Assembly: GCA_037446135.1 (NCBI GenBank) | Contig: JBBIJD010000001.1 | Coordinates: 27,156-91,155, forward strand | Source of the DNA: Candidatus Fraserbacteria bacterium | Lineage (GTDB): Bacteria > Bipolaricaulota > Bipolaricaulia > RBG-16-55-9 > JANLFV01 | Length of the DNA stretch: 64,000 bases | Direction: 5' to 3' | In this document: positions 19,437 through 37,495 of the stretch, in pieces | Position numbering within the stretch: position 1 is the stretch's first letter | Layout of the letters: each line of letters begins with the position of its first letter | Translations under genes and position numbers: made by a program | Notes under the pieces: generated by a model | Seen by the model: only the letters and a program-made list of their open reading frames with translations | The model's database searches: none | What the model was told of the DNA's origin: nothing

Positions 19437-19958
19437 CTAGGCGCTCGTCAGGGTGTAGACGATCTGGAGGGTATAGCTCCCCGGTGGGTCCTCTTCCCAG
19501 GCGAGGAGGACCCTGAAATGGGTATTCACGAGGATATTATTCCCTCTATTCCCCGCGGCCACCTGGACTTCGTTGATGGTCATCCCGGTATAGTCGGGCT
19601 GGGTCGCGGTCACTCGCGGGTCGGTGGAGGAGGACTTCCACTCCAGATCTTCACAGGGCTTATTCGGGTCCGGCCAAGTCCCAGTGTAAGTCCAAGTCGG
19701 GGCTGTGGCCCAGACATTGACCTGCCAGTTGACATTGCTCCTGACTTTGAGCGTCTGGGCGGGAGAGATCTCCTTATAGCCCCTCTCGTAGTCGTCTGCC
19801 GTCAGGTCCCCGAAGTCGACGAGATTGGGGTCCACCGTCAAGCGGAGAGCCGCTAGCGCGGTCGCTTGAACAGTCGTATTTTGGCTTGTCTGGGCCAAGC
19901 CCGCAAGGCCGAGGAGCAGAACCAAACCTGCTGCCAGAAGCCATCTCAATCTTGCCAT
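19437..19958 (-). CDS. Small secreted beta-rich protein, paralog A of a three-member family (pilin/SCPU-like or WxL-like C-terminal strand)
   Basis: 173 aa. Signal peptide MARLRWLLAAGLVLLLGLAGLAQT. Thr/Ser/Asn-rich. C-terminus PGSYTLQIVYTLTSA matches paralogs B (PGDYSITLEYTATSL) and C (PGDYHVTLTYTITTD). Confidence 0.8.
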   Translation of the reverse strand: MARLRWLLAAGLVLLLGLAGLAQTSQNTTVQATALAALRLTVDPNLVDFGDLTADDYERGYKEISPAQTLKVRSNVNWQVNVWATAPTWTYTGTWPDPNKPCEDLEWKSSSTDPRVTATQPDYTGMTINEVQVAAGNRGNNILVNTHFRVLLAWEEDPPGSYTLQIVYTLTSA

Positions 19959-19984: not shown

Positions 19985-20060
19985 GTGGCTTCGGCAGCCT
20001 GGCAGTCCGTGGAGGACCCACGGCTTTGCGCCCCCATGTCGCCATGGGTTCGCCTTTTCG
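19985..20060 (-). promoter_or_regulatory. GEMM-like (c-di-GMP-I class) riboswitch motif in the 5' UTR of paralog A
   Basis: RNA sense: AAGGCGAACCC-[CCCAUG GCGA CAUGGG]-GGCGCAAAGCC-[CCGUGG guccu CCACGG]...GGCUGCCGAAGCC. Shows the GEMM hallmarks GGCAAACC and GGRCGCAAAGCY around a P1 hairpin with a GNRA tetraloop, then P2. The same architecture occurs twice upstream of paralog C with compensatory changes in the P1 stem. Confidence 0.7.
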
Positions 20061-20075
20061 GTCCACTTAAACAAT

Positions 20076-25187: not shown

Positions 25188-25709
25188 TCAATCGGTGGTG
25201 ATGGTGTAGGTCAGGGTCACATGGTAGTCTCCCGGCCTATGATGCTCGCGGTCGAAGAGGATGAGGTAGTCCACCTCCACCTTTTGGCGCCCGCTCGGGC
25301 CATGAGCGATGACCTGATCGGAGTTGCTGACCGGGCGATAGGACTCGCTCCCCACGCGGAGCTGGAAGTCGCTGAGCGGCTTGGTGTAGCGGCCGTCATA
25401 GCTCCTTCCGAGGTCGGGCTCGGCGGCCCGGACCGCCAGCCTCCAGTGGACATTGCTGGCGGCGATGAGGGTGAGCGCCCTAGGGATCTCGCGGTAGCCC
25501 CGCTCCAGGTCCGCTTCGCTCGGCTGAGGGAGCACAAATGTCGTCGTGACGGCCTGGTCGGTCTGGCCCTCGAGTGAGAGGCGGGCGAAAGGGAGGACAG
25601 TCCAAGAGATCGTCGTCCTAGCGGAGTCACCTGTCCCTAGAGCCTGGGCACTGAGGAATAACGAGAGACCGAGAAGAAGCAAGCCGGAGATGACCGCTCT
25701 TCTTGCCAT
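25188..25709 (-). CDS. Small secreted beta-rich protein, paralog C
   Basis: 173 aa. Signal peptide MARRAVISGLLLLGLSLFLSAQA. C-terminal PGDYHVTLTYTITTD. Preceded by tandem GEMM-like riboswitch motifs. Confidence 0.8.
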   Translation of the reverse strand: MARRAVISGLLLLGLSLFLSAQALGTGDSARTTISWTVLPFARLSLEGQTDQAVTTTFVLPQPSEADLERGYREIPRALTLIAASNVHWRLAVRAAEPDLGRSYDGRYTKPLSDFQLRVGSESYRPVSNSDQVIAHGPSGRQKVEVDYLILFDREHHRPGDYHVTLTYTITTD

Positions 25710-25710
25710 C

Positions 25711-25790
25711 CTTCGGCAGCCCGGCGATCCCCGAGGGACCCGTAGCTTTGCGCCCCCACCTTGCGATGGGTTTGCCCTTATCGGGATGCG
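25711..25790 (-). promoter_or_regulatory. GEMM-like (c-di-GMP-I class) riboswitch motif, gene-proximal copy of a tandem pair
   Basis: RNA sense: AAGGGCAAACCC-[AUC GCAA GGU]-GGGGGCGCAAAGCUACGGG...GGGCUGCCGAAGG-AUG. The P1 stem CCCAUC/GGUGGG differs from the other copies (CCCGCC/GGCGGG and CCCAUG/CAUGGG) by compensatory changes, and all three loops are GNRA-type (GCAA, GAGA, GCGA). Confidence 0.7.
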
Positions 25791-25801: not shown

Positions 25802-25905
25802 CCCTTCGGCAGCCCGGCTGCCCTTCACCTCCTTCCCCAATCAGCCAGTGTTAGGGCCCGTGGCTTTGCGCCCCCGCCTCTCGGCGGGTTTGCCCTTATC
25901 GGAGC
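25802..25905 (-). promoter_or_regulatory. GEMM-like (c-di-GMP-I class) riboswitch motif, distal copy of the tandem pair
   Basis: RNA sense: CCGAUAAGGGCAAACCC-[GCC GAGA GGC]-GGGGGCGCAAAGCCACGGGCCC...GGGCAGCCGGGCUGCCGAAGGG. Lies immediately downstream of the promoter at 25916-25945. Confidence 0.7.
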
Positions 25906-25915
25906 TCAGCGAAGG

Positions 25916-25945
25916 TATTATACACCGAGTGAGCGGGCTTGACAA
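25916..25945 (-). promoter_or_regulatory. Near-consensus sigma70 promoter (minus strand TTGTCA-17 nt-TATAAT) for the tandem riboswitch-paralog C transcript
   Basis: Minus-strand reading: ggcTTGTCAagcccgctcactcggtgTATAATacc. Overlaps the 3' end of the HD-GYP gene. Confidence 0.6.
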
Positions 25946-27471
25946 GCCCCTTCGGGCGGGGAAGGTCCTTTCGGGCTCAGATCCAGATTGTATCCCCTCT
26001 CGAAGAGCCGGAGGCAGGCCTCGCCAGCTTGGGGGTCGTAGAGCCGCCCCTTGTGCTTGGCGATCTCTCCCAAGGCCTCCTCGATGGCATGGGCCGGGCG
26101 GTAGGGCCGGTGAGAGGCCACCGCCTCCACCACATCGGCCACCGCTAGAATTCGGGCCTCGAGCATGATCTCTTCCCCCTTGAGCCCCCGGGGGTAGCCC
26201 GAGCCGTCGAGCCGCTCGTGGTGCTGGAGGACGATCTCAGCCACCGGCCAGGGGAAGTCGATCTGCCTCAAGACCTCATAGCCGGCCTGGGGATGGACCC
26301 GCACCAGCCCCAACTCGGCCGGATTGAGCCTCCCCGGCTTGCTCAGGATCTCCGCGGGGATATAGATCTTCCCGATGTCGTGGACCTGAGCGGCCATCCT
26401 GAGCCCGGCGATCCGGTCCTGAGGGAGGCCCATCTCCTGGGCGATCGCGCAGGCCAGCTCCGCCACCCGCCGCTGGTGCCCCGCGGTGTAGGGGTCCCGG
26501 ACCTCGACGGTGGTGGCGAGGACATCGACCATCTGCTCCAGGAGCCGCTCCAGCCGCTCATGACTCTCCCGGAGGGCCTCAAACAGCCGGAGGTTCTCCA
26601 AGGCCACAGCGGTGGCATTGGCCAAAGCCTCGAGGAGCTGGCAGTCCTCGGAGGTGAAGGCATTCAACTCCTGGCTCTCGGCGTTGAGGGCCCCGAGGAC
26701 CCGCTCCCCCGCCTTCAAGGGGACGCAGAGCTCAGAGCGGTTGGCGAACCGCCCCCCGACGAACCGTGGGTCCTTGGTCACATCCGGGAGGAGGATCATC
26801 TCCCCAGAGCGGGCCACGGCGGGGATGATCCCCCGCTCGCTAGCGAGGGGGAACTCCTCCGGGCCGGGGGGCCGTCCAAGAGTGTGGGCGACACAGATGA
26901 GCCGCTCGGCCTTCTCGTCCACTAGGAAGAGGCCGCAGTCCTCGAGCCCGAGGACCTCCCGGGCCGCCTCCACCGCCGCTTGGGCGATCTCCTCCTCGCT
27001 CCGGGAGAGGATCAACCTTCGGCCCAGGGCGTAGATCCCGGCCAGGCCCCGCTCGAGCCGCTTCCGCTCGGTGATGTCCCTCAGGATCGTCTGGAGGCCG
27101 ACGACCTTCCCCGCCTGCCTGATCGGGTTGCTCCGGTAGTCCGCGATCCTCGGCCCCTTGGGGGTGGTGAGCTCGATCTCCCCTTGGATCGGCTCCCCTC
27201 GGCTTATCCGGGCGAGCTCCTCGAGCAGCCGGGGATGGTAGCGCTCGGGGACGAACTCGAGCATATTCTTCCCGACCAGGTCCTCCTTGCGGAAGCCATA
27301 TTCTGCAGCGGCCCGGTTCACGGCCGTCACATTCCCTTCAAGGTCGAAGGTGACAATGACATCCCTAGCGTCCTCGAAGAGCTCGCGATAGGCCCCTTCC
27401 GCCCGCTCAAGCTCAGCCACCCGCAGCCGGAGCTGCTCGAGCTCTAACCCCTCTCGTGCCTCCGGTCTCAA
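25918..27471 (-). CDS. PAS-GAF-HD-GYP protein (c-di-GMP phosphodiesterase, HD-GYP class)
   Basis: 517 aa. HD motif (VHDIGKI) and HHERLDGSGYP (the GYP signature). N-terminal PAS and GAF regions. Confidence 0.9.
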   Translation of the reverse strand: MRPEAREGLELEQLRLRVAELERAEGAYRELFEDARDVIVTFDLEGNVTAVNRAAAEYGFRKEDLVGKNMLEFVPERYHPRLLEELARISRGEPIQGEIELTTPKGPRIADYRSNPIRQAGKVVGLQTILRDITERKRLERGLAGIYALGRRLILSRSEEEIAQAAVEAAREVLGLEDCGLFLVDEKAERLICVAHTLGRPPGPEEFPLASERGIIPAVARSGEMILLPDVTKDPRFVGGRFANRSELCVPLKAGERVLGALNAESQELNAFTSEDCQLLEALANATAVALENLRLFEALRESHERLERLLEQMVDVLATTVEVRDPYTAGHQRRVAELACAIAQEMGLPQDRIAGLRMAAQVHDIGKIYIPAEILSKPGRLNPAELGLVRVHPQAGYEVLRQIDFPWPVAEIVLQHHERLDGSGYPRGLKGEEIMLEARILAVADVVEAVASHRPYRPAHAIEEALGEIAKHKGRLYDPQAGEACLRLFERGYNLDLSPKGPSPPEGACQARSLGV

Positions 27472-28475: not shown

Positions 28476-29783
28476 TCAGAGGAGCCGCTGGAGGGCCTCC
28501 GCTAGGGTCGGGCGGCCGATCTCTTGGAGCTCATAGCGGACGCGGACGGCCGGGGCCTCAAATTCGATGAGCCGGCGGAGGTCGATCGGGGTTCCGATGA
28601 TCACCACCTCCGGTGAGGCCCGGCGGATCGTCTCCTCTAGCTCCTTGATCTGCTCTTTCCCGTAACCCATCGCCGGGAGGACCTGCTCCGCTTGGGGATA
28701 CTTCGTGAGGGTCTCGGCGAGCGAGCCGACCGCGAATGGCCGGGGATCAATCAACTCCCGCGCCCCGAATCGCTCCGCGGCCAGCCGCCCGGCGCCGAAG
28801 CTCATCCCGCCATGAGTGAGCGTCGGCCCATCCTCGATGACCAAGGCCCGCTTCCCTCGGATCAGCTCGGGCGCCTCGACCGAGATCGGCGAGGCCGCCT
28901 CGATGATCATCGCCCCAGGATTGACTTTCCGGACATTCTCCCGGACCCGCTGGACCTGCTCTTCAGCGGCGGTATCGACCTTATTGATCACCACCACATC
29001 CGCCGCGCGGATGTTGACCGAGCCGGGCCAAAAGGTCAGCTCATGGCCAGCACGGAGGGGATCAGCGACGGTGATCCACAGGTCCGGGCTGTAGAAGGGG
29101 AAGTCATTGTTTCCCCCATCCCAGAGGATGATATCCGCCTCGCGCTCCGCTTCGCGGAGGATCCGTTCGTAATCGACCCCGGCGAAGACGACATTCCCAT
29201 GATCGAGGTGGGGCTCATATTCTTCCCGCTCCTCGATCGTGCAGTTATGCCGGTCCAGGTCGGCATAGCTGGCGAACCGCTGGACCGCCTGCTTCGCTAG
29301 GTCCCCGTAGGGCATGGGATGGCGGACGATCGCCAGCCTCTTCCCTTTGGCACGGAGGAGCTCGCTCACCCTCCGGGTGGTCTGGCTCTTCCCGCAGCCG
29401 GTCCGAACGGCCGTGATCGCCACTACCGGCTTTTTGGCCTTGAGCATCGTCGAGTCTGGGCCGAGCAGGAGGAAGTCGGCCCCCGCGGCCTGGGCGATGG
29501 CCGCTCGCTCCATCACATGCTGGTGGGAGACATCGCTGTAGGCGAAGACGACCTGCTGGACCTTCTGCTCTTTGATCAATTCCGGGAGGCGCTCCTCCGG
29601 CTCGATCGGGATCCCCTCAGGGTAGAGCGGGCCCGCCAGCTCCGGAGGATACCTCCTCCCGGAGATGTTGGGGATCTGGGTCGCAGTGAAGGCCACGACC
29701 CTATAATCGGGGTTCTCGCGGAAATAGACATTGAAGTTGTGGAAGTCTCTCCCGGCTGCGCCCATGATGATCGCGCGCTTCAC
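28476..29783 (-). CDS. P-loop NTPase-domain protein resembling the cyclic 2,3-diphosphoglycerate synthetase (cPGS) family
   Basis: 435 aa. Walker A-like TGCGKS. Overall length and pattern recall archaeal cPGS-like proteins. Assignment is from memory and needs an HMM search. Confidence 0.5.
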   Translation of the reverse strand: MKRAIIMGAAGRDFHNFNVYFRENPDYRVVAFTATQIPNISGRRYPPELAGPLYPEGIPIEPEERLPELIKEQKVQQVVFAYSDVSHQHVMERAAIAQAAGADFLLLGPDSTMLKAKKPVVAITAVRTGCGKSQTTRRVSELLRAKGKRLAIVRHPMPYGDLAKQAVQRFASYADLDRHNCTIEEREEYEPHLDHGNVVFAGVDYERILREAEREADIILWDGGNNDFPFYSPDLWITVADPLRAGHELTFWPGSVNIRAADVVVINKVDTAAEEQVQRVRENVRKVNPGAMIIEAASPISVEAPELIRGKRALVIEDGPTLTHGGMSFGAGRLAAERFGARELIDPRPFAVGSLAETLTKYPQAEQVLPAMGYGKEQIKELEETIRRASPEVVIIGTPIDLRRLIEFEAPAVRVRYELQEIGRPTLAEALQRLL

Positions 29784-29972
29784 TTAAGGACCACGCTCCT
29801 TGCTTGGCTTGCCCGGCCTGGCTCGGGCTTGGCTAGCGCCCGAGATGATAGGGGAAGCACAAAGGCCGGTCAAGCCGAGCTGAGCTAAGCTAAGCGAGCC
29901 AGGCAGTCGGTCCGTCCGACCCTTGTGAGGCCCACTGTGGGCCTATATACTTAGGGAGAGCGAGGTGGAGGA

Positions 29973-30527
29973 TTGAACAAGAGCAAGCGCGGCCTCTTTC
30001 TCGGGCGATTCCAGCCCTACCATAACGGCCACCATGCGGTCATAGAGAAGATTGCTAAGGAGGTCGATGAGCTGATCATCGGGATCGGGAGCGCCCAGTG
30101 GAGCCACTCCTTCGATAACCCCTTCACCGCCGGTGAGCGGGTCTTGATGGTCCGCCGGGCGATCAAGCACCTCCCGATCGTCACTTATGTCCTGCCGATC
30201 GAGGACATCCAGCGGAACTCCCTCTATGTGGCCCACATCAAGACGATCTGTCCGCCATTCTCGGTGGTCTATTCCAATAATCCCCTGATCCGGCGGCTCT
30301 TCGAGGAGGAGGGGATCGAGGTTCGCCGGACAGAGATGGTCGAACGGGAGCTCTATTGGGGTGTGGAGATCCGGCGGAGGATGGTCAACGGCGAGCCCTG
30401 GGAGGAGTTAGTCCCCCCCGCGGTCGTGGAGGTCATCTCTGAGATCGACGGGCTGGCGCGGCTCCGGCAGGTGACCTCGACTGACACGACCGTTCCCCAG
30501 GACCTCCGGGATAAGGGGTCGAGCTAG
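29973..30527 (+). CDS. nadM: Nicotinamide-nucleotide adenylyltransferase, archaeal type (NadM family)
   Basis: 184 aa. TTG start with [23 protein letters not shown] is the (H/T)xGH nucleotidyltransferase motif in its archaeal NMNAT context. Confidence 0.85.
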
Positions 30528-30537
30528 CTCAGTCAGG

Positions 30538-31038
30538 ATGGGCTTGGAAGAGAAGGTCGGGGCGCTCCTGCGGGCGAGGGGGCTCACTCTCGCGACGGCC
30601 GAGTCCTGCACCGGCGGACTATTGGGCCACATGATCACGAATGTCCCTGGCAGTTCGGACTATTTCTTAGGAGGTGTAGTGGCCTACTCCAATGCCGCCA
30701 AGGAGCGCCTCCTCGGGGTCCGAGCCGAGACCCTGGCGAAAGAGGGGGCCGTGAGCGCGGCCGTGGCACTGGAGATGGCCCGCGGGGCTCGAAGGCTCTT
30801 CGACTCGGACCTGGCCCTCGCGACCACCGGGATCGCCGGGCCGGGTGGCGGGACGGAGGAGAAGCCGGTCGGCCTGGTCTATATCGCCCTGGTCGCCCCG
30901 ACTCGAGAATTGTGCGAGCGCCATATCTGGCAGGGCGAGCGGGTGGAGAACAAGCGCCGCACAGCGGAGCGGGCCCTGAAGCTCCTCTTAGAGCATTTGA
31001 ATCCTAGCTTGGGTGAGCCTGAGCCAAGGGTAAGATGA
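30538..31038 (+). CDS. pncC: NMN amidohydrolase (CinA C-terminal domain, PncC)
   Basis: 166 aa. [38 protein letters not shown] is the CinA/PncC signature. Confidence 0.9.
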
Positions 31039-31802
31039 TTTTGAACCTGCCTCATAACGGGAATGAGAAGCTGAGTGAGCTTGAGCGGCGGATCTCCCAG
31101 CATGAGCCGCTCAAGACCTACTGGTATTGCTCCAATGTCAATGTGATCGACAGGATGGGGATCAACGACCATGGGCCGGTCCATATCAAGATCGTGGCCA
31201 ACCTCGCCCTGAAGATCCTGAGGCTCCTCGCCACTGCCGGGATCGAGCCGAGCGTAGTGAAGCACCACAAGCTCTCGCCCGCCGACGCTGAGGTGATCGT
31301 GGTCCTCGCGGCGGCCTTGCATGACATCGGGCACATCGTCCACCGGGAGAACCATGAGGAGTTCTCGATCGCCCTCGCACCGGGGCTGATTCATGAGCTC
31401 ATCGAGGGGCTCTATGGGCCTCGGGAGATGGCGATCCTGACCGCCGAGGTCTTGCATGCGATCTATGCCCACAAGACCGAGGTCGAGCCCCTGACAGTCG
31501 AGGCCGGGGTCCTGAAGGTCGCCGATGCACTGGACATGGAGCAAGGGCGGGCGAGGATCCCCTTCCAGATCGGGGGGATCACGATCCACTCCGTCTCGGC
31601 GATGGCCATCGACAAGGTCCGGGTCCGTCGGGGGAAGGAGAAGCCGGTCGAGATCCATATCAAGATGTCCAACTCCGCGGGGATCTTCCAATTGGATAAT
31701 CTCTTGAAGCGGAAGCTGGAGCACTCCGGGATCAAGGATCATTTCGAGATCAATGTCGAGATCGGCGCGGAGCGGAAGATTGTGGAGCAGTATCGGCTAT
31801 GA
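31035..31802 (+). CDS. HD-domain metal-dependent phosphohydrolase
   Basis: 255 aa. H...HDIGH motif ([19 protein letters not shown]). Confidence 0.65.
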
Positions 31803-32107
31803 TCGCGGAATTCAGCATCACCCCCATCGGGAGGGGCGAGAGCCTCTCCGAGGAGATCGCCAGGGTCCTGGATCTGGTGGACAAGAGCGGGCTGGACTAC
31901 CGGCTCACGCCGATGGGGACGATCATCGAGGGGGAGTGGGACGAGGTCTTCGCCCTGATCAAGCGCTGCCATGAGGCAGTGCTCGAGCGGGCGAACCGTG
32001 TCTCCACTTGGGTCCACATCGACGATCGCAAGGGCGTCCCCAAGGACCGGATCCGGCACAAGGTCAAGGCCGTGGAAGAGAGGCTCGGCCGGGAGCTCAA
32101 GAAGTGA
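31799..32107 (+). CDS. MTH1187/YkoF-family protein (DUF77)
   Basis: 102 aa. [50 protein letters not shown] is the typical ferredoxin-like MTH1187 fold signature. Confidence 0.8.
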   Translation: MIAEFSITPIGRGESLSEEIARVLDLVDKSGLDYRLTPMGTIIEGEWDEVFALIKRCHEAVLERANRVSTWVHIDDRKGVPKDRIRHKVKAVEERLGRELKK

Positions 32108-32117
32108 GCCTAGAGCA

Positions 32118-33122
32118 ATGAAGGCGATGGTCCTTCGCCGGCCGAGACCGATCGCGGACCGGCCTTTAGTGCTGGAGGAGGTCCCGCTCCCCGAGCCCGG
32201 GCCGGGGGAGATAAGGCTCCGAGTCCGGGCCTGCGGGGTCTGCCATACCGACCTACATACGGTCGAGGGGGATCTCAAGCTCCCGCGGCTCCCGCTCATC
32301 CCCGGCCACCAGATCGTCGGGGTGGTCGAGAAGCGCGGGGAAGGGGTGGAGCGCTTCAAGTTGGGCCAGCGAGTCGGGGTCCCCTGGCTCAACTGGGCCT
32401 GTGGGGAGTGCGAATTCTGTCGGAAGGGGCTGGAGAACCTCTGTCCCAATGCCAAGTTCACCGGCCTCCATGTGGACGGCGGCTATGCCGAGTATGCCAT
32501 CGTCCCGGAAGCCTTCGCTTATCCCATCCCCGAGGGCTTCTCGGACTCCCAGGCGGCCCCGCTCCTCTGCGCCGGGATCATCGGCTACCGTGCCCTCCGG
32601 TTGAGTGAGGCCAAGGCGAGGGAGCGACTCGGCCTCTTCGGCTTCGGGGCCTCGGCCCATGTGACGATCCAGGTGGCCCGCCACCTAGGGTGTGAGGTCT
32701 ATGTCTTCACTCGGACGAAAGGGCATCAAGAACTGGCACAGAAATTGGGGGCAGCATGGGTCGGCCCGCCCCAGGATGAGCCGCCTCGGCAGCTCGACGG
32801 TGCGATCATCTTCGCCCCAGCAGGTTGGCTCGTCCCGAAGGCATTGCGGGCCCTCCGGCCTGGAGGGACTCTGGCCCTCGCGGGGATCCACATGACCCCG
32901 ATCCCGGAGCTGAGCTATGAGCTCCTTTACGGCGAGCGGACGGTCCGAAGCGTGGCCAACATGACCCGAGAGGATGCGCGAGAACTCCTAGAGCTGGCGG
33001 AGAAGATCCCGATCCAGACCGAGGTCGAGGTCTATCCCCTCGCCGAGGCCAACGAGGTCCTCCTTCGGCTGAAGGAGGGGCGGATTCGCGGCGCGGCGGT
33101 CTTAGATATTGCTCCCCCATAG
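32118..33122 (+). CDS. Zinc-dependent alcohol dehydrogenase (MDR family)
   Basis: Start at MKAMVLRRP. GVCHTDLH, GHQIVGVV, CGECEFCRKGLENLC (structural Zn site), GFGASAHVTIQ. The upstream extension in the ORF track is low-complexity. Confidence 0.9.
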   Translation: MKAMVLRRPRPIADRPLVLEEVPLPEPGPGEIRLRVRACGVCHTDLHTVEGDLKLPRLPLIPGHQIVGVVEKRGEGVERFKLGQRVGVPWLNWACGECEFCRKGLENLCPNAKFTGLHVDGGYAEYAIVPEAFAYPIPEGFSDSQAAPLLCAGIIGYRALRLSEAKARERLGLFGFGASAHVTIQVARHLGCEVYVFTRTKGHQELAQKLGAAWVGPPQDEPPRQLDGAIIFAPAGWLVPKALRALRPGGTLALAGIHMTPIPELSYELLYGERTVRSVANMTREDARELLELAEKIPIQTEVEVYPLAEANEVLLRLKEGRIRGAAVLDIAPP

Positions 33123-33174
33123 GCCTCCGACTATAATGGGGAAGACCCTGCGCGATCGGGAGGTAGAAGAGAAG

Positions 33175-34242
33175 ATGGAAGCCAAGCTTACGCGGAGGTC
33201 CTTCCTCAAATTCGCCGGTCTCGCCGCCCTGGGATTGCTCACCTCACCAAGGCTCCCCCGGGCTAAGACTGAGAAGCCACTCCAGCTCAGCTATCCCCTC
33301 TCGCTCGAGGCCATCCCCCTCAAGTTCGCTGAGAAGGAGGGGCTCTTCCGGGCCGAGGGGTTGGAGGTGGAGATCCTCTCCCTCCCCGAGGATCTGGCCC
33401 GCCGGGATGCCTTCATCTCGGGGAGGCTCGACGGCCTGATCTGCGACCTCTCCACGGTCGTCTTCGGGGTGGCCAACGCCGGGGCTGAGATCGCTATCAC
33501 CTCCACGGCCTTCGAGCAGCTCCCAGGGGGCCGGACCCTGGTCCTTTTAGGGAGTGGGCCATTCGGGATCAGGAGCCTGGAAGACCTCTTCAGTCGCGTC
33601 AGCGGCAGATCATTTGAGTCGATCATGATCCTGATGAGATCGGACATGCACTATGCCACGGATCAACTTTTGGCCGGTCTGGGGAGGAGCTTCGACGATA
33701 AGGTCATCTACACCGAGGGCGGGGACCTAGTGAACATCTACACCCTGCTTATCGGTGGGAGCATCCTAGCGGCCGTCCTCCCTGAGCCGCTGGCCACCCT
33801 CGCCGGCCCGAAGGACACCCTCCTCCAGGAGCGGGACCGTGCGACTTACCTCTCGACCTATGAGGGGATTAAGCTCATGCCTGCTGTGATCGCCTTCCAG
33901 AGGAAGGCCCTATCAGACCGGCCGGAGCAGCTCGAGCGGTTCTATCGGGCCTACAGCCGGGCGGTGGAGGAGATCAACGCCGCGCCGCGGGAGGAGTTCC
34001 TCGACCTTGCGGCCGATATCGGGATCGAGGTCCTCAACCAGGTGCTCCCCGATCGTCAGTATACTAGAGCGGACTTGCCCGAGGGCTTCCTCGAGATCTT
34101 TGATATCCCCCGCTTCCCTCAGCCGCGACTCCTCGCGGAAGAGGAACTCCAGGCGGTGGTGGAGTGGGCTCTGGCCAAGCGGTTCATCTTCCAGAGGATC
34201 TCCTATGCCCAAGCGACGGATAATCGTTTCCTGATAGCATGA
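33175..34242 (+). CDS. ABC transporter substrate-binding protein, NitT/TauT (NMT1-like) family, Tat signal
   Basis: MEAKLTRRSFLKFAGLAALGLL twin-arginine signal. NMT1/SsuA-like periplasmic binding fold pattern. Confidence 0.8.
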   Translation: MEAKLTRRSFLKFAGLAALGLLTSPRLPRAKTEKPLQLSYPLSLEAIPLKFAEKEGLFRAEGLEVEILSLPEDLARRDAFISGRLDGLICDLSTVVFGVANAGAEIAITSTAFEQLPGGRTLVLLGSGPFGIRSLEDLFSRVSGRSFESIMILMRSDMHYATDQLLAGLGRSFDDKVIYTEGGDLVNIYTLLIGGSILAAVLPEPLATLAGPKDTLLQERDRATYLSTYEGIKLMPAVIAFQRKALSDRPEQLERFYRAYSRAVEEINAAPREEFLDLAADIGIEVLNQVLPDRQYTRADLPEGFLEIFDIPRFPQPRLLAEEELQAVVEWALAKRFIFQRISYAQATDNRFLIA

Positions 34243-34988
34243 TCGAGGTCGAGGCCCTCCATCTGGACTATCGGCTCGGGCGGGGGCGGGGGCAGCCCAT
34301 GCCGGCGATCGCCGGCCTCTCCCTCAAGGTCGGGCGGGGAGAGAGCCTGGCGATCATTGGCCCCTCCGGCTGCGGGAAGACTAGCCTCCTTTATGTTTTG
34401 GCCGGGCTTTTGCGCCCGACCTCCGGGGCGGTCCGGATCGCCGGGGAAGAGGTCCGCGGCCCGCGGCGGGATGTGGCCCTCATCCTCCAGGAGATCGGAC
34501 TATTGCCCTGGAAGACCATCTGGAGGAATGTCGTATTAGGGCTGGAGCTGAACGGCGGGCTCGATCGGGCCCATTCGGCCAAGGTAGAGGCGCTCCTTGA
34601 GGAGCTCGGGCTGGCCGAGCTGCGGGACCGCTATCCGGCCCAGCTCTCCGGTGGGCAGAAGAAGCGGGTCGGGCTGGCAAGGGCCCTGGCCGTCGAGCCG
34701 GCGGCCCTCTTGATGGACGAGCCGCTCGCCTTCCTCGATGAGCAGACGAAGGAGGAGATCCAGGACTCGATCCTCCAGCTCTGGCAGGAACGGAAGGAGC
34801 AGTTGACGATGGTCCTCGTGACCCACGACATCGAGGAGGCCGTCTTCCTCGGGCAACGGATCGCGGTCCTCACCCCCCGTCCGGCAAAGGTCAAGGCGGA
34901 ATTGGCGAACCCCGGGCTGGGCGGGCCGGATTACCGCCGGAGCCCGGAGTTCTATGAGCTGGTAAGGCGGCTACGCGAACTCCTCTAG
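34239..34988 (+). CDS. ABC transporter ATP-binding protein (NitT/TauT family)
   Basis: Walker A GPSGCGKTS, signature LSGGQKKRV, Walker B LLMDEP. Confidence 0.95.
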   Translation: MIEVEALHLDYRLGRGRGQPMPAIAGLSLKVGRGESLAIIGPSGCGKTSLLYVLAGLLRPTSGAVRIAGEEVRGPRRDVALILQEIGLLPWKTIWRNVVLGLELNGGLDRAHSAKVEALLEELGLAELRDRYPAQLSGGQKKRVGLARALAVEPAALLMDEPLAFLDEQTKEEIQDSILQLWQERKEQLTMVLVTHDIEEAVFLGQRIAVLTPRPAKVKAELANPGLGGPDYRRSPEFYELVRRLRELL

Positions 34989-35759
34989 ATGAGCCGGCAA
35001 CGGAAGCTCTTTTATTACCTTTTGGGGCTGGTGATCCTCCTAGCAGTGTGGTTCCTCGGGAGCCTGATCATGGAGCTGGTCTTCCTCCATGAGCCGGCCA
35101 AGGCAAGGGCTTTCCCCGACCCGATCCGGGCCTTCAAGGCCCTTTACAACAGTTGGAGCGAGCTGGGGAGGAACCTCCTCGCCAGTGGGCTCAGGGTCCT
35201 GCTCGGCCTCCTCATTGCCGTCCTCGTCGCCGCCCCGATCGGACTGGTCCTCGGCCATGAGGAGTTCCTCGATCGGATCTTTAGCCCCGTCATCTACATC
35301 ACCTTCCCCATCCCCAAGATCGTCTTTCTGCCTCTATTGTTCGTCCTCTTCGGGCTGAGTGAGCTCTCGATCGTCTCGATCATCGCCCTGATCGTGGCCT
35401 TCCAGACACTCCTCGCGGCAAGGGACGCCGCGAGGAATGTCCCCCCAGACTATGTCCTGAGCGTCCGGAGCGCTGGGGCCAATAAGTGGCAGGTCTATCG
35501 CCATGTGGTCATCCCCGCCTCGCTCCCCGAGGTCCTGGCCTCGGTCCGGATCTCCATCGGGATCGCGATCGCCGCCCTTTATCTCGCGGAGACGACCGGG
35601 GTCAACTCCGGGCTGGGCTACTTCCTCCAGAGCGTCCGGCGCCAGTTCAGATATGAGGACCTCTTCGCCGGGATCATGGTCATGGGCCTCCTCGGGCTCA
35701 TCCTCTATGGGCTGCTCGACCTGCTCGAACGGCTCCTCTGCCGCTGGAAGCACCTCTGA
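34989..35759 (+). CDS. ABC transporter permease (NitT/TauT family)
   Basis: 256 aa, six hydrophobic segments, EAA-like loop region. Confidence 0.9.
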   Translation: MSRQRKLFYYLLGLVILLAVWFLGSLIMELVFLHEPAKARAFPDPIRAFKALYNSWSELGRNLLASGLRVLLGLLIAVLVAAPIGLVLGHEEFLDRIFSPVIYITFPIPKIVFLPLLFVLFGLSELSIVSIIALIVAFQTLLAARDAARNVPPDYVLSVRSAGANKWQVYRHVVIPASLPEVLASVRISIGIAIAALYLAETTGVNSGLGYFLQSVRRQFRYEDLFAGIMVMGLLGLILYGLLDLLERLLCRWKHL

Positions 35760-35768
35760 TCTCGTCTT

Positions 35769-36587
35769 ATGAACATCCACTTAAAGAGGCTGCTCCTCTT
35801 GGTGAACTTCGCTAAGCCCGGGGCCGCCCAGTTGGTGGAACGGATCTCGGTCTGGGGGAAGGAGCGGGGGATCGAGGTCGCGGTCCATGGGAGCCTCGAG
35901 GAGGGCCTCGAGGCCGGGCCCGAGCTGGGGACGACGGTGGTCGTGACCCTCGGGGGGGACGGGACCTTCCTCCGCGGGGCCCACCGCTTCGCCACACAAG
36001 CGGCCCCGCTCTTGGGGATCAATCTGGGGAGCCTCGGCTTCCTCACCCAGGTCGGAGCGGAGGAGGCCCTCCAGGCCCTGGAGCGGCTCCGGCGGGGCGA
36101 GTTCCGCCTGGAGGAGAGGATGATGCTCGAGGGCCAGCTCCGCGAGGAGAGGTTCCTCGCGCTCAATGAGCTCTTCCTCGCCCCAAAGGCGGTCGGAGGG
36201 TTCACTGAGCTCGAGCTCTTTGCCAATGGAGAGCGGGTCGGCCTCTACCCCGGAGATGGGCTGATCCTCGCCACTCCGACTGGCTCGACGGCCTACTCCC
36301 TGGCCGCGGGGGGGCCGATCGTCGAGCCCCGCCTGGAGATGATCATCGTCACCCCGGTCGCACCGCATCGGCTCGGGCTCCGGACGGCCATCTTCCCCCC
36401 CGAGGCGGAACTCCGGGTCTTAGCCCACCAACCCGCGACCCTGCTCGTCGATGGTGACTCCTCCGGGGAGCTCCTCCCTGGGGAGGAGCTCTTGGTCCGG
36501 CGCTCCCCCTCTCGGATTAGACTGGTCGTGGCTGACTCCCCGGGCTTCTTCTTCCTATTGGAGCGGAAACTCAACTGGGGCGGCTAG
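35769..36587 (+). CDS. nadK: NAD kinase
   Basis: GGDGT motif (VTLGGDGTFLRGA), NE/DG region and C-terminal beta domain. Confidence 0.9.
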   Translation: MNIHLKRLLLLVNFAKPGAAQLVERISVWGKERGIEVAVHGSLEEGLEAGPELGTTVVVTLGGDGTFLRGAHRFATQAAPLLGINLGSLGFLTQVGAEEALQALERLRRGEFRLEERMMLEGQLREERFLALNELFLAPKAVGGFTELELFANGERVGLYPGDGLILATPTGSTAYSLAAGGPIVEPRLEMIIVTPVAPHRLGLRTAIFPPEAELRVLAHQPATLLVDGDSSGELLPGEELLVRRSPSRIRLVVADSPGFFFLLERKLNWGG

Positions 36588-37495
36588 AACTCCAACCTGA
36601 GCTGGAAGGTCTGGCTCCCTAGGCCGATCGGGGTGAGGACCGAGGCCGCGGAGAGCTCCAAGTCCCCGATGGTCGCGCCGATCCTGAATTCCCCCAGCCC
36701 GGTCGTGAATGAGGCCTCACTCACCAGGCTCAGCTCACCGGTGGAGGCGCTCAGCCGGATGATCTCCCTTGTGACCCCTTGGGGTCCGACCGCGATCCCG
36801 CTGGTGATGGAGATTGGCCCGAGCTCGAATTCGACCCCCAACCGCTCCTCAGTGATGACAAACCCTTCGGGGTTAACCTCCGTCTCGCTCCTGAGAGGCC
36901 CGGTGGTGAGTGTGAGGGTGATCTGATCGACATAGAAGTTGAGGTCTTTGTCCAGGGTGAGCCTGCTCCGGCCTCCGAGGAGGACCCCCGGGGCGAGGCG
37001 GAGATCCTCCAATTTGAGGACCAAATTCAATTCCTGGCCCTCGGGGAGTGGGGGGCCACCGAGCTTCTCCAGCATCAGGCCGATGAGGGCGGCGAAGAAG
37101 TCGAGCCTCGCCTCGAGCGCGGCGATGTTTCCAAATCCCAGGGAGAGCTCCGCTTCGGGTGAGCTCTCGCCCCAGCTCCAGAGGTCGAACGAGAGGCCGA
37201 GGCCCCAGAAGAGGGCATTCAGCTCGGTCGGCGGCCGGGGCTGGCCGAGGTCTGCCGCCCTTGTGAGGAAGGCCTCGATCTCCTTCACGGTCAGCAGCGT
37301 GGCCTGGAGGCTCAGGCCCTCTTTAGTTAGGTCGCTGATGAGCGGCCCGGTCGAGGGGACCTCGCTGCAGAGCGCGAGGTAGTTCAAGGAAGGACAGGGG
37401 AGGCCGAGGCTCAGCTCGCCGCGAGTCGAGCAGAATAAGAGTAGCAATAGGAGAAACAATCCGAACCCTCTCATGACGGAGCCCCCTCTTGCCAC
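36584..37495 (-). CDS. Secreted hypothetical protein
   Basis: 303 aa in the track. The internal Met of MRGFGLFLLLLLLFCST is probably the true start (signal peptide). No recognisable domain. Confidence 0.45.
   Translation of the reverse strand: MARGGSVMRGFGLFLLLLLLFCSTRGELSLGLPCPSLNYLALCSEVPSTGPLISDLTKEGLSLQATLLTVKEIEAFLTRAADLGQPRPPTELNALFWGLGLSFDLWSWGESSPEAELSLGFGNIAALEARLDFFAALIGLMLEKLGGPPLPEGQELNLVLKLEDLRLAPGVLLGGRSRLTLDKDLNFYVDQITLTLTTGPLRSETEVNPEGFVITEERLGVEFELGPISITSGIAVGPQGVTREIIRLSASTGELSLVSEASFTTGLGEFRIGATIGDLELSAASVLTPIGLGSQTFQLRLEF

Follow-up and report, generated by a model that had tools for sequence, protein, structure and literature searches.

The pairing of a pyridine-mononucleotide adenylyltransferase with a hydrolase is already known in kind from two described systems: (i) YqeK, an HD protein that is fused to or clustered with the adenylyltransferase NadD and hydrolyses diadenosine tetraphosphate (Ap4A), analogues of nicotinate adenine dinucleotide (NaAD) and 8-oxo-GTP (PMC9426524), and (ii) the Nudix domain fused to NadM of bacteria and phages, a pyrophosphatase on NAD or ADP-ribose that cleaves NAD (PMC9503650). 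Here we describe a variant in which a gene for NadM stands with a gene for an HD protein, found in 64,000 nucleotides of a Candidatus Bipolaricaulota genome (Candidatus Fraserbacteria bacterium, contig JBBIJD010000001.1, positions 27,156 to 91,155 of the forward strand; hereafter the window). Nine tightly packed genes of the same direction, at 29973-36587 on the + strand of the window, encode in order NadM, PncC, the HD protein, an MTH1187/YkoF-family protein, a zinc-dependent alcohol dehydrogenase (ADH), the three components of an ATP-binding cassette (ABC) importer and NAD kinase (NadK), and are best read as one transcription unit for the upkeep of NAD(P) cofactors. By analogy with the two known systems, and from the history of a single clade, we tentatively suggest (probability about 0.4) that the HD protein may act within this unit as the hydrolytic partner of NadM.

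Like the NadD-YqeK systems (COG1713) of Firmicutes and Mollicutes, the window places an HD gene co-directionally with a pyridine-mononucleotide adenylyltransferase gene in a cluster. The partner here is instead NadM, the HD protein is unrelated to YqeK and has an additional alpha/beta domain at its C-terminus, no fused form was found, and the association is confined to one clade. With the NadM-Nudix proteins (e.g. PDB 2QJO) the locus shares a NadM-type adenylyltransferase coupled to a hydrolase, physically fused there and encoded by a neighbouring gene here; unlike them, the NadM of the window is the short stand-alone archaeal form, and the hydrolase next to it has an HD rather than a Nudix fold. 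The enzyme itself resembles MJ0541 and MTH150 in its full-length match and in conserved HxGH and EIRRRM motifs, and differs from them in being encoded in a bacterium and in having a C-terminal tail of about 13 residues. In the literature that we could search, no paper connects NadM with an HD gene.

NadM and the HD protein

Genes of the window were assigned to families from Pfam and NCBIfam profile matches, judged against curated cut-offs. By the names of its homologues the window belongs to Candidatus Bipolaricaulota, a group also known as Acetothermia. NadM scores 245.6 bits with the archaeal nicotinamide mononucleotide (NMN) adenylyltransferase model TIGR01527 (cut-off 181.2) and 248.4 with NF002243 (cut-off 127), and aligns over its full length with M. 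jannaschii MJ0541 (PDB 1F9A; 221 bits, E 7.7e-65) and with MTH150 (PDB 1EJ2; E 1.7e-52). The (H/T)xGH nucleotidyltransferase motif lies within residues 11-20, and the C-terminal EIRRRM aligns with that of MJ0541, where SGTEIRRRM reads WGVEIRRRM in the window (Ser and Thr to Trp and Val). The match to 2QJO is limited to residues 3-66, that is to 64 N-terminal residues, and bifunctional models score far below their cut-offs, so that the protein of the window is without a Nudix domain; no domain fusion appeared among the 120 best NadM matches, all of them single-domain. We read nadM as an archaeal-type, stand-alone gene for a predicted nicotinamide/nicotinate mononucleotide adenylyltransferase, a family that adenylylates nicotinate mononucleotide (NaMN) or NMN to NaAD or NAD. 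Its nearest named relatives outside its own clade are the NMN adenylyltransferases of Methanoregula and other Methanomicrobiales (about 62% identity) and one Fraserbacteria entry (61%), and the closeness of the methanogen enzymes points to lateral acquisition of nadM from archaea.

In the methanogens whose NadM is closest, the candidate donors of nadM, no HD gene was found near nadM, which has an AIRC/LarB-like gene and an unannotated gene as its flanks. In Methanoregula (L095:4228-6804 and L096:4228-6821; genomic loci are denoted by L numbers) nadM overlaps the end of the AIRC-family (LarB-like) gene by 4 nt and is followed by a gene for a 428-aa protein without a Pfam match. LarB uses NaAD, the product of NadM on NaMN, and this nadM/LarB-like pairing may be meaningful in its own right.

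The HD protein belongs to the HD superfamily (PF01966, 34.5 bits against a cut-off of 22, with the H...HD...D metal-binding pattern) and consists of a helical HD domain at the N-terminus followed by an alpha/beta domain of about 75 aa (AlphaFold model, pLDDT 87). Its fold resembles the HD-fold domain of GppA/PPX, phosphodiesterases and other HD hydrolases, and a Foldseek comparison of the model with the PDB gave weak matches (TM about 0.4) to the C-terminal half of PPX/GppA. The sole solved relative by sequence profile is the uncharacterised E. coli YedJ (PDB 3GW7), with which the match is confined to the core HD helices and which is without the C-terminal domain. No specific Pfam or NCBIfam model covers the family, which is large and broadly dispersed: 3757 matches were retrieved from a protein collection at 90% identity, a search at 50% identity gave 253 clusters (E <= 1e-30), and members from Bipolaricaulota, Chloroflexota, Thermoplasmatota/DHVE2 and other archaea are 50-60% identical to one another. 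The 150 best family representatives are nearly all stand-alone proteins of 250-300 aa; longer ones carry a YHS domain, a partial deacetylase domain or nothing recognisable.

Across 90 sequences the residues D45-H46-G47..H50, H96-D97, H107-E108, H141, H146, D164 and D167 are invariant, as are G171-R172-x-R174, H185 and N213-S214-A215-G216, the GRxR and NSAG motifs belonging to the C-terminal domain. The invariant His and Asp residues would fit a metal-dependent, possibly two-metal active site like that of a phosphodiesterase (PDE); the pattern HxxxH...HDxxH...E...D probably resembles the active site of class I PDEs, and would suit a metal-dependent phosphodiesterase or diphosphatase. A role in a defence system was also considered and rejected: PHROGs gave marginal HD matches, and PADLOC nothing for the HD protein, the MTH1187 protein, or the approximately 150-aa open reading frame (ORF) and recombinase-like gene that flank HD in other genomes.

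Distribution of the nadM-HD pair

A scan of one genome per species, in which the HD family has at least 545 matches, yielded 80 loci of HD, each with as much as 10 kb of sequence to either side, and nine further contigs of close relatives (L081-L089; HD 75-95% identical to that of the window) were taken from the protein collection. nadM lies upstream of HD in 10 of these 80 species-level genomes (L001-L009 and L017) and in all nine contigs. The two genes are directly adjacent, spaced by -11 to +27 nt, in nine of the ten; in L001, pncC stands between them. Within this group the HD proteins diverge to 56-68% identity and the NadM proteins to 56-61%, and the flanking genes vary on both sides, including those for an Rdx-family protein, histidyl-tRNA synthetase, a GT4 glycosyltransferase, a molybdenum oxidoreductase, an M20 peptidase and acetyl-CoA synthetase. 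When HD is placed on a neighbour-joining tree, the nadM-linked loci all group in a single clade (Bipolaricaulota/Fraserbacteria), whose deeper branches, among them a Fraserbacteria genome, have nadM-HD in unrelated flanks, often with a small Rdx-family gene before it. This latter gene, of the SelW/SelT-like thioredoxin fold, overlaps the start of nadM in L002 (9090-9464), L003 (9149-9469) and L009 (9178-9429).

The remaining genes were added to the pair later. The order nadM-pncC-HD-MTH1187 is found in nine of the nine close-relative contigs, whereas among the 80 genome loci pncC occurs once (L001) and the genes for MTH1187, ADH, the importer's substrate-binding protein (SBP) and NadK not at all. 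MTH1187 directly follows HD in L081-L089 only, and is missing from L001, which is nested in the same subclade. Downstream of this core, ADH-ABC-nadK appears only in relatives whose HD is at least 91% identical; L087, L088 and L089 show three differing contexts in its place, and of these only L089 retains an ADH homologue, 1.4 kb 3' of MTH1187 and past an intervening gene. pncC, then MTH1187, then ADH-ABC-nadK thus joined stepwise in ever narrower subclades, and, given this stepwise assembly, a functional interpretation drawn from the neighbourhood in a single genome over-reads it.

A possible hydrolytic partner of NadM, or a housekeeping enzyme

The loci support a history in layers. A single ancestor of the Bipolaricaulota/Fraserbacteria clade acquired an archaeal nadM immediately 5' of a housekeeping HD gene that it already had, the two genes have stayed translationally coupled while their surroundings changed, and further NAD genes joined the unit, pncC first and nadK later in the species group of the window. 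In the reading that we favour, the HD protein would be a metal-dependent diphosphatase or phosphodiesterase, the hydrolytic partner of a NadM that has no Nudix domain of its own, and would destroy side-products or surplus dinucleotides, for example Ap4A, mis-made NaAD or NAD analogues, or NAD or ADP-ribose themselves. Persistence of the nadM-HD pair and accretion of NAD genes around it constitute moderate evidence for a functional tie between the two proteins. Taken with the YqeK-NadD and Nudix-NadM precedents, they suggest a diphosphatase/phosphodiesterase partner as the most likely mechanism, and the precedents make hydrolysis of dinucleotides more plausible than a step on mononucleotides or ribosides.

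Several observations weigh against a dedicated partnership. That the nadM-linked loci are monophyletic on the HD tree implies one evolutionary event, not repeated convergence. No NAD gene lies within 10 kb of HD in 70 of the 80 genomes, the one other NAD neighbour being a nicotinate phosphoribosyltransferase (NAPRTase) gene in L080. Other Bipolaricaulota have HD in a conserved triad, after an unannotated ORF of about 150 aa that overlaps its start (39 loci) and before a tyrosine-recombinase-like gene (37 loci), with mutL divergent upstream in 31 loci; in archaeal loci HD adjoins a gene for a GfcR-like protein of phosphoribosyltransferase fold or for FKBP, and in Chloroflexota nuoABC or LLM-oxidoreductase-like ORFs (recognised in the sequences by eye). 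NAD genes account for one of 134 immediate neighbours of HD in loci without nadM, against 0.5-0.7 expected by chance. This single case is the NAPRTase gene of an uncultured Chloroflexia, 15 bp after HD in an isolated two-gene pair (L080:10001-12396), and in a metagenome scan the pair recurred only in relatives at least 97% identical (L097-L099 and L113) and was gone at 73% or less; given this confinement and the chance-level count, we treat it as chance. The nadM of Methanoregula, closest outside the clade, has no HD gene adjacent. The HD protein was rejected as a member of YqeK/COG1713, having no NCBIfam match and no profile match to the YqeK structures 8WMY and 2O08, and no fusion of HD to a NAD enzyme was present among the 150 best family representatives or the 120 best NadM matches. 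Since the adjacency arose only once, and since 70 of 80 genomes have HD outside any NAD context, we put the partnership at about 0.4.

An alternative that we consider nearly as likely is that HD is a general housekeeping phosphohydrolase without a particular tie to NAD, perhaps cleaning nucleotide pools or processing nucleic-acid ends; an archaeal nadM gained by lateral transfer would have landed before it once, the pair would persist by inertia, and pncC and nadK would have been drawn by nadM rather than by HD. The spread of the family over bacteria and archaea at 50-60% identity and in 253 clusters, its location mostly away from NAD genes, its usual Bipolaricaulota flanks (the 150-aa ORF, the recombinase-like gene and mutL), its co-directional position upstream of mutL in one Thermoplasmatota genome (chance about 0.03) and the single origin of the nadM adjacency all speak for it. 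Inertia accounts less readily for a near-zero nadM-HD spacing that endures to about 56% identity despite reshuffled flanks, or for the insertion of pncC between the two genes without splitting the transcription unit, and two precedents couple this class of adenylyltransferase to a diphosphatase. The YqeK precedent shows, moreover, that proofreading of NAD is compatible with a role in cleaning the pool.

Outside the nadM clade, HD is divergent to mutL in 31 Bipolaricaulota genomes among L010-L061 (e.g. L019:7741-11930), and in the Thermoplasmatota locus noted above (L064:10001-12495) mutL is co-directional, 57 bp 3' of HD. The ORF of the triad (about 150-165 aa, e.g. L019:9514-10008, + strand) has no Pfam, NCBIfam or PADLOC match; the Phage_integrase-family protein of about 205 aa is encoded about 200 bp 3' of HD (e.g. 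L010:4372-5055, + strand). Adjacency to mutL may hint at a role of the HD family in nucleotide quality control, and such an enzyme would fit a hydrolytic partner of NadM and a housekeeping phosphohydrolase alike. A broader proposal, which we regard as unlikely, would make the HD family a third independent coupling of NAD synthesis to dinucleotide hydrolysis, a diphosphatase that serves stand-alone NadM of the archaeal type in proofreading or turnover, with its adjacency to mutL reflecting the same quality-control chemistry.

Should the HD protein work with NadM, this would provide a first function for a large and highly conserved HD family common to bacteria and archaea, unnamed and without a solved structure, and would extend to archaeal-type enzymes and to a deep-branching uncultured phylum the idea, drawn from work on minimal genomes, that NAD adenylyltransferases require a damage-control hydrolase of their own; the NadD of JCVI-Syn3 accepts dATP, CTP or UTP. 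Should it have no link to NadM, the locus would be a commonplace operon, restricted to its lineage, of familiar NAD(P) enzymes and passengers.

Organization of the operon and its remaining genes

The features of the unit are collected in Table 1. Four-nucleotide overlaps join pncC to HD, HD to MTH1187 and the SBP gene to the ATPase gene; the ATPase and permease genes abut; and gaps of 10, 10 and 9 nt separate nadM from pncC, MTH1187 from ADH and the permease gene from nadK, the gaps at non-overlapping junctions ranging over 0-52 nt. On its 5' side the unit stops at a divergent gene (28476-29783, - strand), and on its 3' side at a convergent gene (36584-37495, - strand).

Table 1. Genes and promoter-like site of the NAD(P) unit (positions in the window)
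Feature	Position	Strand	Assignment and remarks
promoter-like site	29923-29951	+	TTGTGA-17-TATACT, 21 nt 5' of nadM start
nadM	29973-30527	+	TIGR01527; 184 aa; TTG start
pncC	30538-31038	+	PF02464, TIGR00199; 166 aa
HD protein	31035-31802	+	PF01966; 255 aa
MTH1187/YkoF-family protein	31799-32107	+	TIGR00106, PF01910; 102 aa
zinc-dependent ADH	32118-33122	+	TIGR02822; 334 aa
ABC substrate-binding protein (SBP)	33175-34242 (probable)	+	twin-arginine translocation (TAT) signal, weak NMT1 match
ABC ATPase, NitT/TauT-like	34239-34988	+	PF00005
ABC permease, NitT/TauT-like	34989-35759	+	PF00528
NAD kinase (nadK)	35769-36587	+	PF01513, PF20143; 272 aa

The promoter-like site is the sole + strand candidate within 29600-36900, a match to consensus rather than proof of function, and both of its hexamers are retained in L081, L084 and L087. 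Over the same interval no convincing internal terminator was found, the one weak terminator-like match lying inside the SBP coding sequence. L081, L087, L089 and L001 share the TTG start of nadM and the GGAGGTGGA Shine-Dalgarno sequence before it. The spacer of the promoter-like site is filled by a perfect 17-nt palindrome of 8-1-8 form, AGGCCCAC-T-GTGGGCCT (29928-29944); as a candidate operator it was rejected, being retained in L081 alone and degraded in L084 and L087, hence not well conserved. Searches of the window with Rfam found neither a NAD+ nor a thiamine pyrophosphate (TPP) riboswitch. The divergent neighbour of nadM encodes a 435-aa protein with faint CobW/MeaB/HypB GTPase-like matches alone, and is retained in L081-L086 and L088, not in L087 or L089.

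If genes were placed at random, one nine-gene unit would hold three NAD(P) genes with a probability of about 2e-4 to 1e-3, a rough figure that uses assumed genome sizes and NAD gene counts. Gene identities, tight packing, boundaries and this low chance figure together confirm the observation from which the analysis set out: every gene call of the original prediction held, at the coordinates it gave, including an archaeal nadM with a TTG start and nadK after ADH and the ABC importer, and its near-contiguous genes with overlapping stops and starts are borne out at the pncC/HD and HD/MTH1187 junctions. It had, however, placed HD and MTH1187 between NMN-handling enzymes; in the order nadM-pncC-HD-MTH1187 both lie 3' of the NMN genes, between pncC and nadK.

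Both of the other NAD(P) genes have well-supported assignments. The pncC product is a stand-alone, predicted NMN deamidase of the CinA C-terminal type with the full set of catalytic and binding residues, scoring 198.7 bits with PF02464 (cut-off 23.5) and 161.9 with TIGR00199 (cut-off 68.9). Deamidases of this family take the NMN set free when NAD is consumed and convert it to NaMN again. Aligned with A. tumefaciens CinA (PDB 2A9S), the protein has equivalents of E30, S31, C32, T33, G35, G46, S48, Y58, K63 and R145, retains the TGIAGPGGG loop and also conserves the equivalent of T105. It thereby shares with that protein the Ser/Lys dyad and the phosphate-binding Tyr and Arg, and is without the COG1058 ADP-ribose pyrophosphatase half. 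In the A. tumefaciens protein the catalytic and substrate-binding residues were defined by mutagenesis as the dyad S31 and K63 and the phosphate binders Y58, R145, S48 and T105 (PMC5384747). The score falls below the cut-off of the E. coli-type nicotinamide-nucleotide amidase equivalog NF002975 (155 bits against 212), and the domain family includes proteins that are not deamidases. NadK, of the family that phosphorylates NAD to NADP, matches PF20143 (87.6 bits) and PF01513 (61.3 bits), both above cut-off, has the GGDG motif within LGGDGTFL, and scores below every NCBIfam equivalog cut-off (best 168 against 309).

The MTH1187-family protein is a full-length and clear member of the MTH1187/TM0486/YkoF thiamine-binding family (PF01910, 107.5 bits against 24.9; TIGR00106, 89.7 against 54.7), with solved relatives in MJ1052 (PDB 2EKY; E 3e-14) and MTH1187 (PDB 1LXN; E 3.5e-12); its place after HD in a NAD operon is specific to the subclade of the window. 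Homologues 63-65% identical, in Syntrophaceae, Thermoplasmatota and another Acetothermia lineage, have genes for pseudouridine synthase, purine nucleoside phosphorylase and proteases as neighbours, and no NAD gene was found near those checked in the three groups. The ADH scores 392.3 bits with TIGR02822 (cut-off 283.5) in a match that begins at residue 55 of the long ORF; its true start is the ATG at 32118 and not the ORF start at 31971, the orthologue in a relative being 335 aa long and starting 6 nt after the MTH1187 gene.

The importer is likely of the general NitT/TauT type by the profile matches of its components, all of which score far below every curated substrate-specific model. The ATPase matches PF00005 at 114 bits and, as its best NCBIfam model, TauB at 201.8 (cut-off 357); the permease matches PF00528 at 96.6 bits, SaoP at 125.8 (cut-off 295) and TauC at 105.8 (cut-off 342). 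The SBP has alternative starts at 33109 (TTG) and 33136 (ATG), its orthologues in relatives being called at 355-357 aa. In addition to its TAT signal it shows an NMT1/THI5-like match of 24.4 bits (cut-off 20.5) in which no single stretch passes the E-value limit, and a weak SsuA-family match (23.7 bits against 163.5); no informative solved relative was found. Most likely the operon picked up the genes for the MTH1187 protein, the ADH and the importer recently, as passengers.

A thiamine or hydroxymethylpyrimidine salvage sub-module, made up of the MTH1187 protein and the importer and merely sharing the operon, is a quite improbable reading of these genes. The NCBIfam name of the family is 'MTH1187 family thiamine-binding protein', a survey lists it among conserved archaeal proteins with 'possible thiamine binding', citing TM0486 (PMC6393860), and the NMT1 match gives the SBP a faint NMT1/THI5/ThiY-like character. 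That survey, however, still lists the role of the family as unknown (PMC6393860), the ADH gene separates MTH1187 from the importer, and the two occur together only in relatives at least 91% identical. With no NMT1 stretch significant by itself and no TPP riboswitch in the window, the SBP does not qualify as a ThiY/THI5-like pyrimidine-precursor binding protein.

Least probable of all is a new step in NMN or nicotinamide riboside handling by HD and MTH1187, for example dephosphorylation of NMN with the help of a binding or carrier protein, for which the ABC importer would bring in the pyridine precursor. In its favour, HD-superfamily 5'-nucleotidases exist, and these genes share their direction and close packing with nadM, pncC and nadK, both here and in relatives of 91% identity or more. 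Against it, none of the 80 genome loci has MTH1187, not even L001 inside the subclade, and in other lineages MTH1187 stands in unrelated contexts; ADH-ABC-nadK is replaced in L087, L088 and L089; the transporter scores far below every substrate-specific model; the search for a NAD riboswitch in the window was negative; and no importer of NMN or nicotinamide riboside is known in this ABC family, the known ones being PnuC, NiaP and ECF-type NiaX. Of the original prediction, which had offered this step, the synteny of HD with NAD genes stood in comparative genomics, for nadM-HD in 10 of 80 genomes and nine contigs of one clade, and that of MTH1187 was reduced to L081-L089; a place for HD in pyridine-nucleotide metabolism survives on that one clade, where analogy points to dinucleotides in place of NMN or the riboside. 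The original prediction made no mention of the YqeK and Nudix pairings. Synteny does not support MTH1187 as a NAD partner, for it is a late and losable addition, nor uptake of a precursor by the importer, which is a neighbour only in the closest relatives and to which no substrate can be assigned.

Elsewhere in the window, three matches to the c-di-GMP-I-GGC variant riboswitch exceed the gathering score (61-76 bits), all on the - strand: 19989-20063, 25711-25785 and 25804-25903. The first, a single riboswitch, lies directly 5' of an ORF at 19437-19958, and the tandem pair formed by the other two directly 5' of an ORF at 25188-25709, just after a PAS-GAF-HD-GYP gene (25918-27471, - strand). The two ORFs encode paralogous 173-aa proteins (31% identity, E 5e-14), whose orthologues are without a Pfam match.

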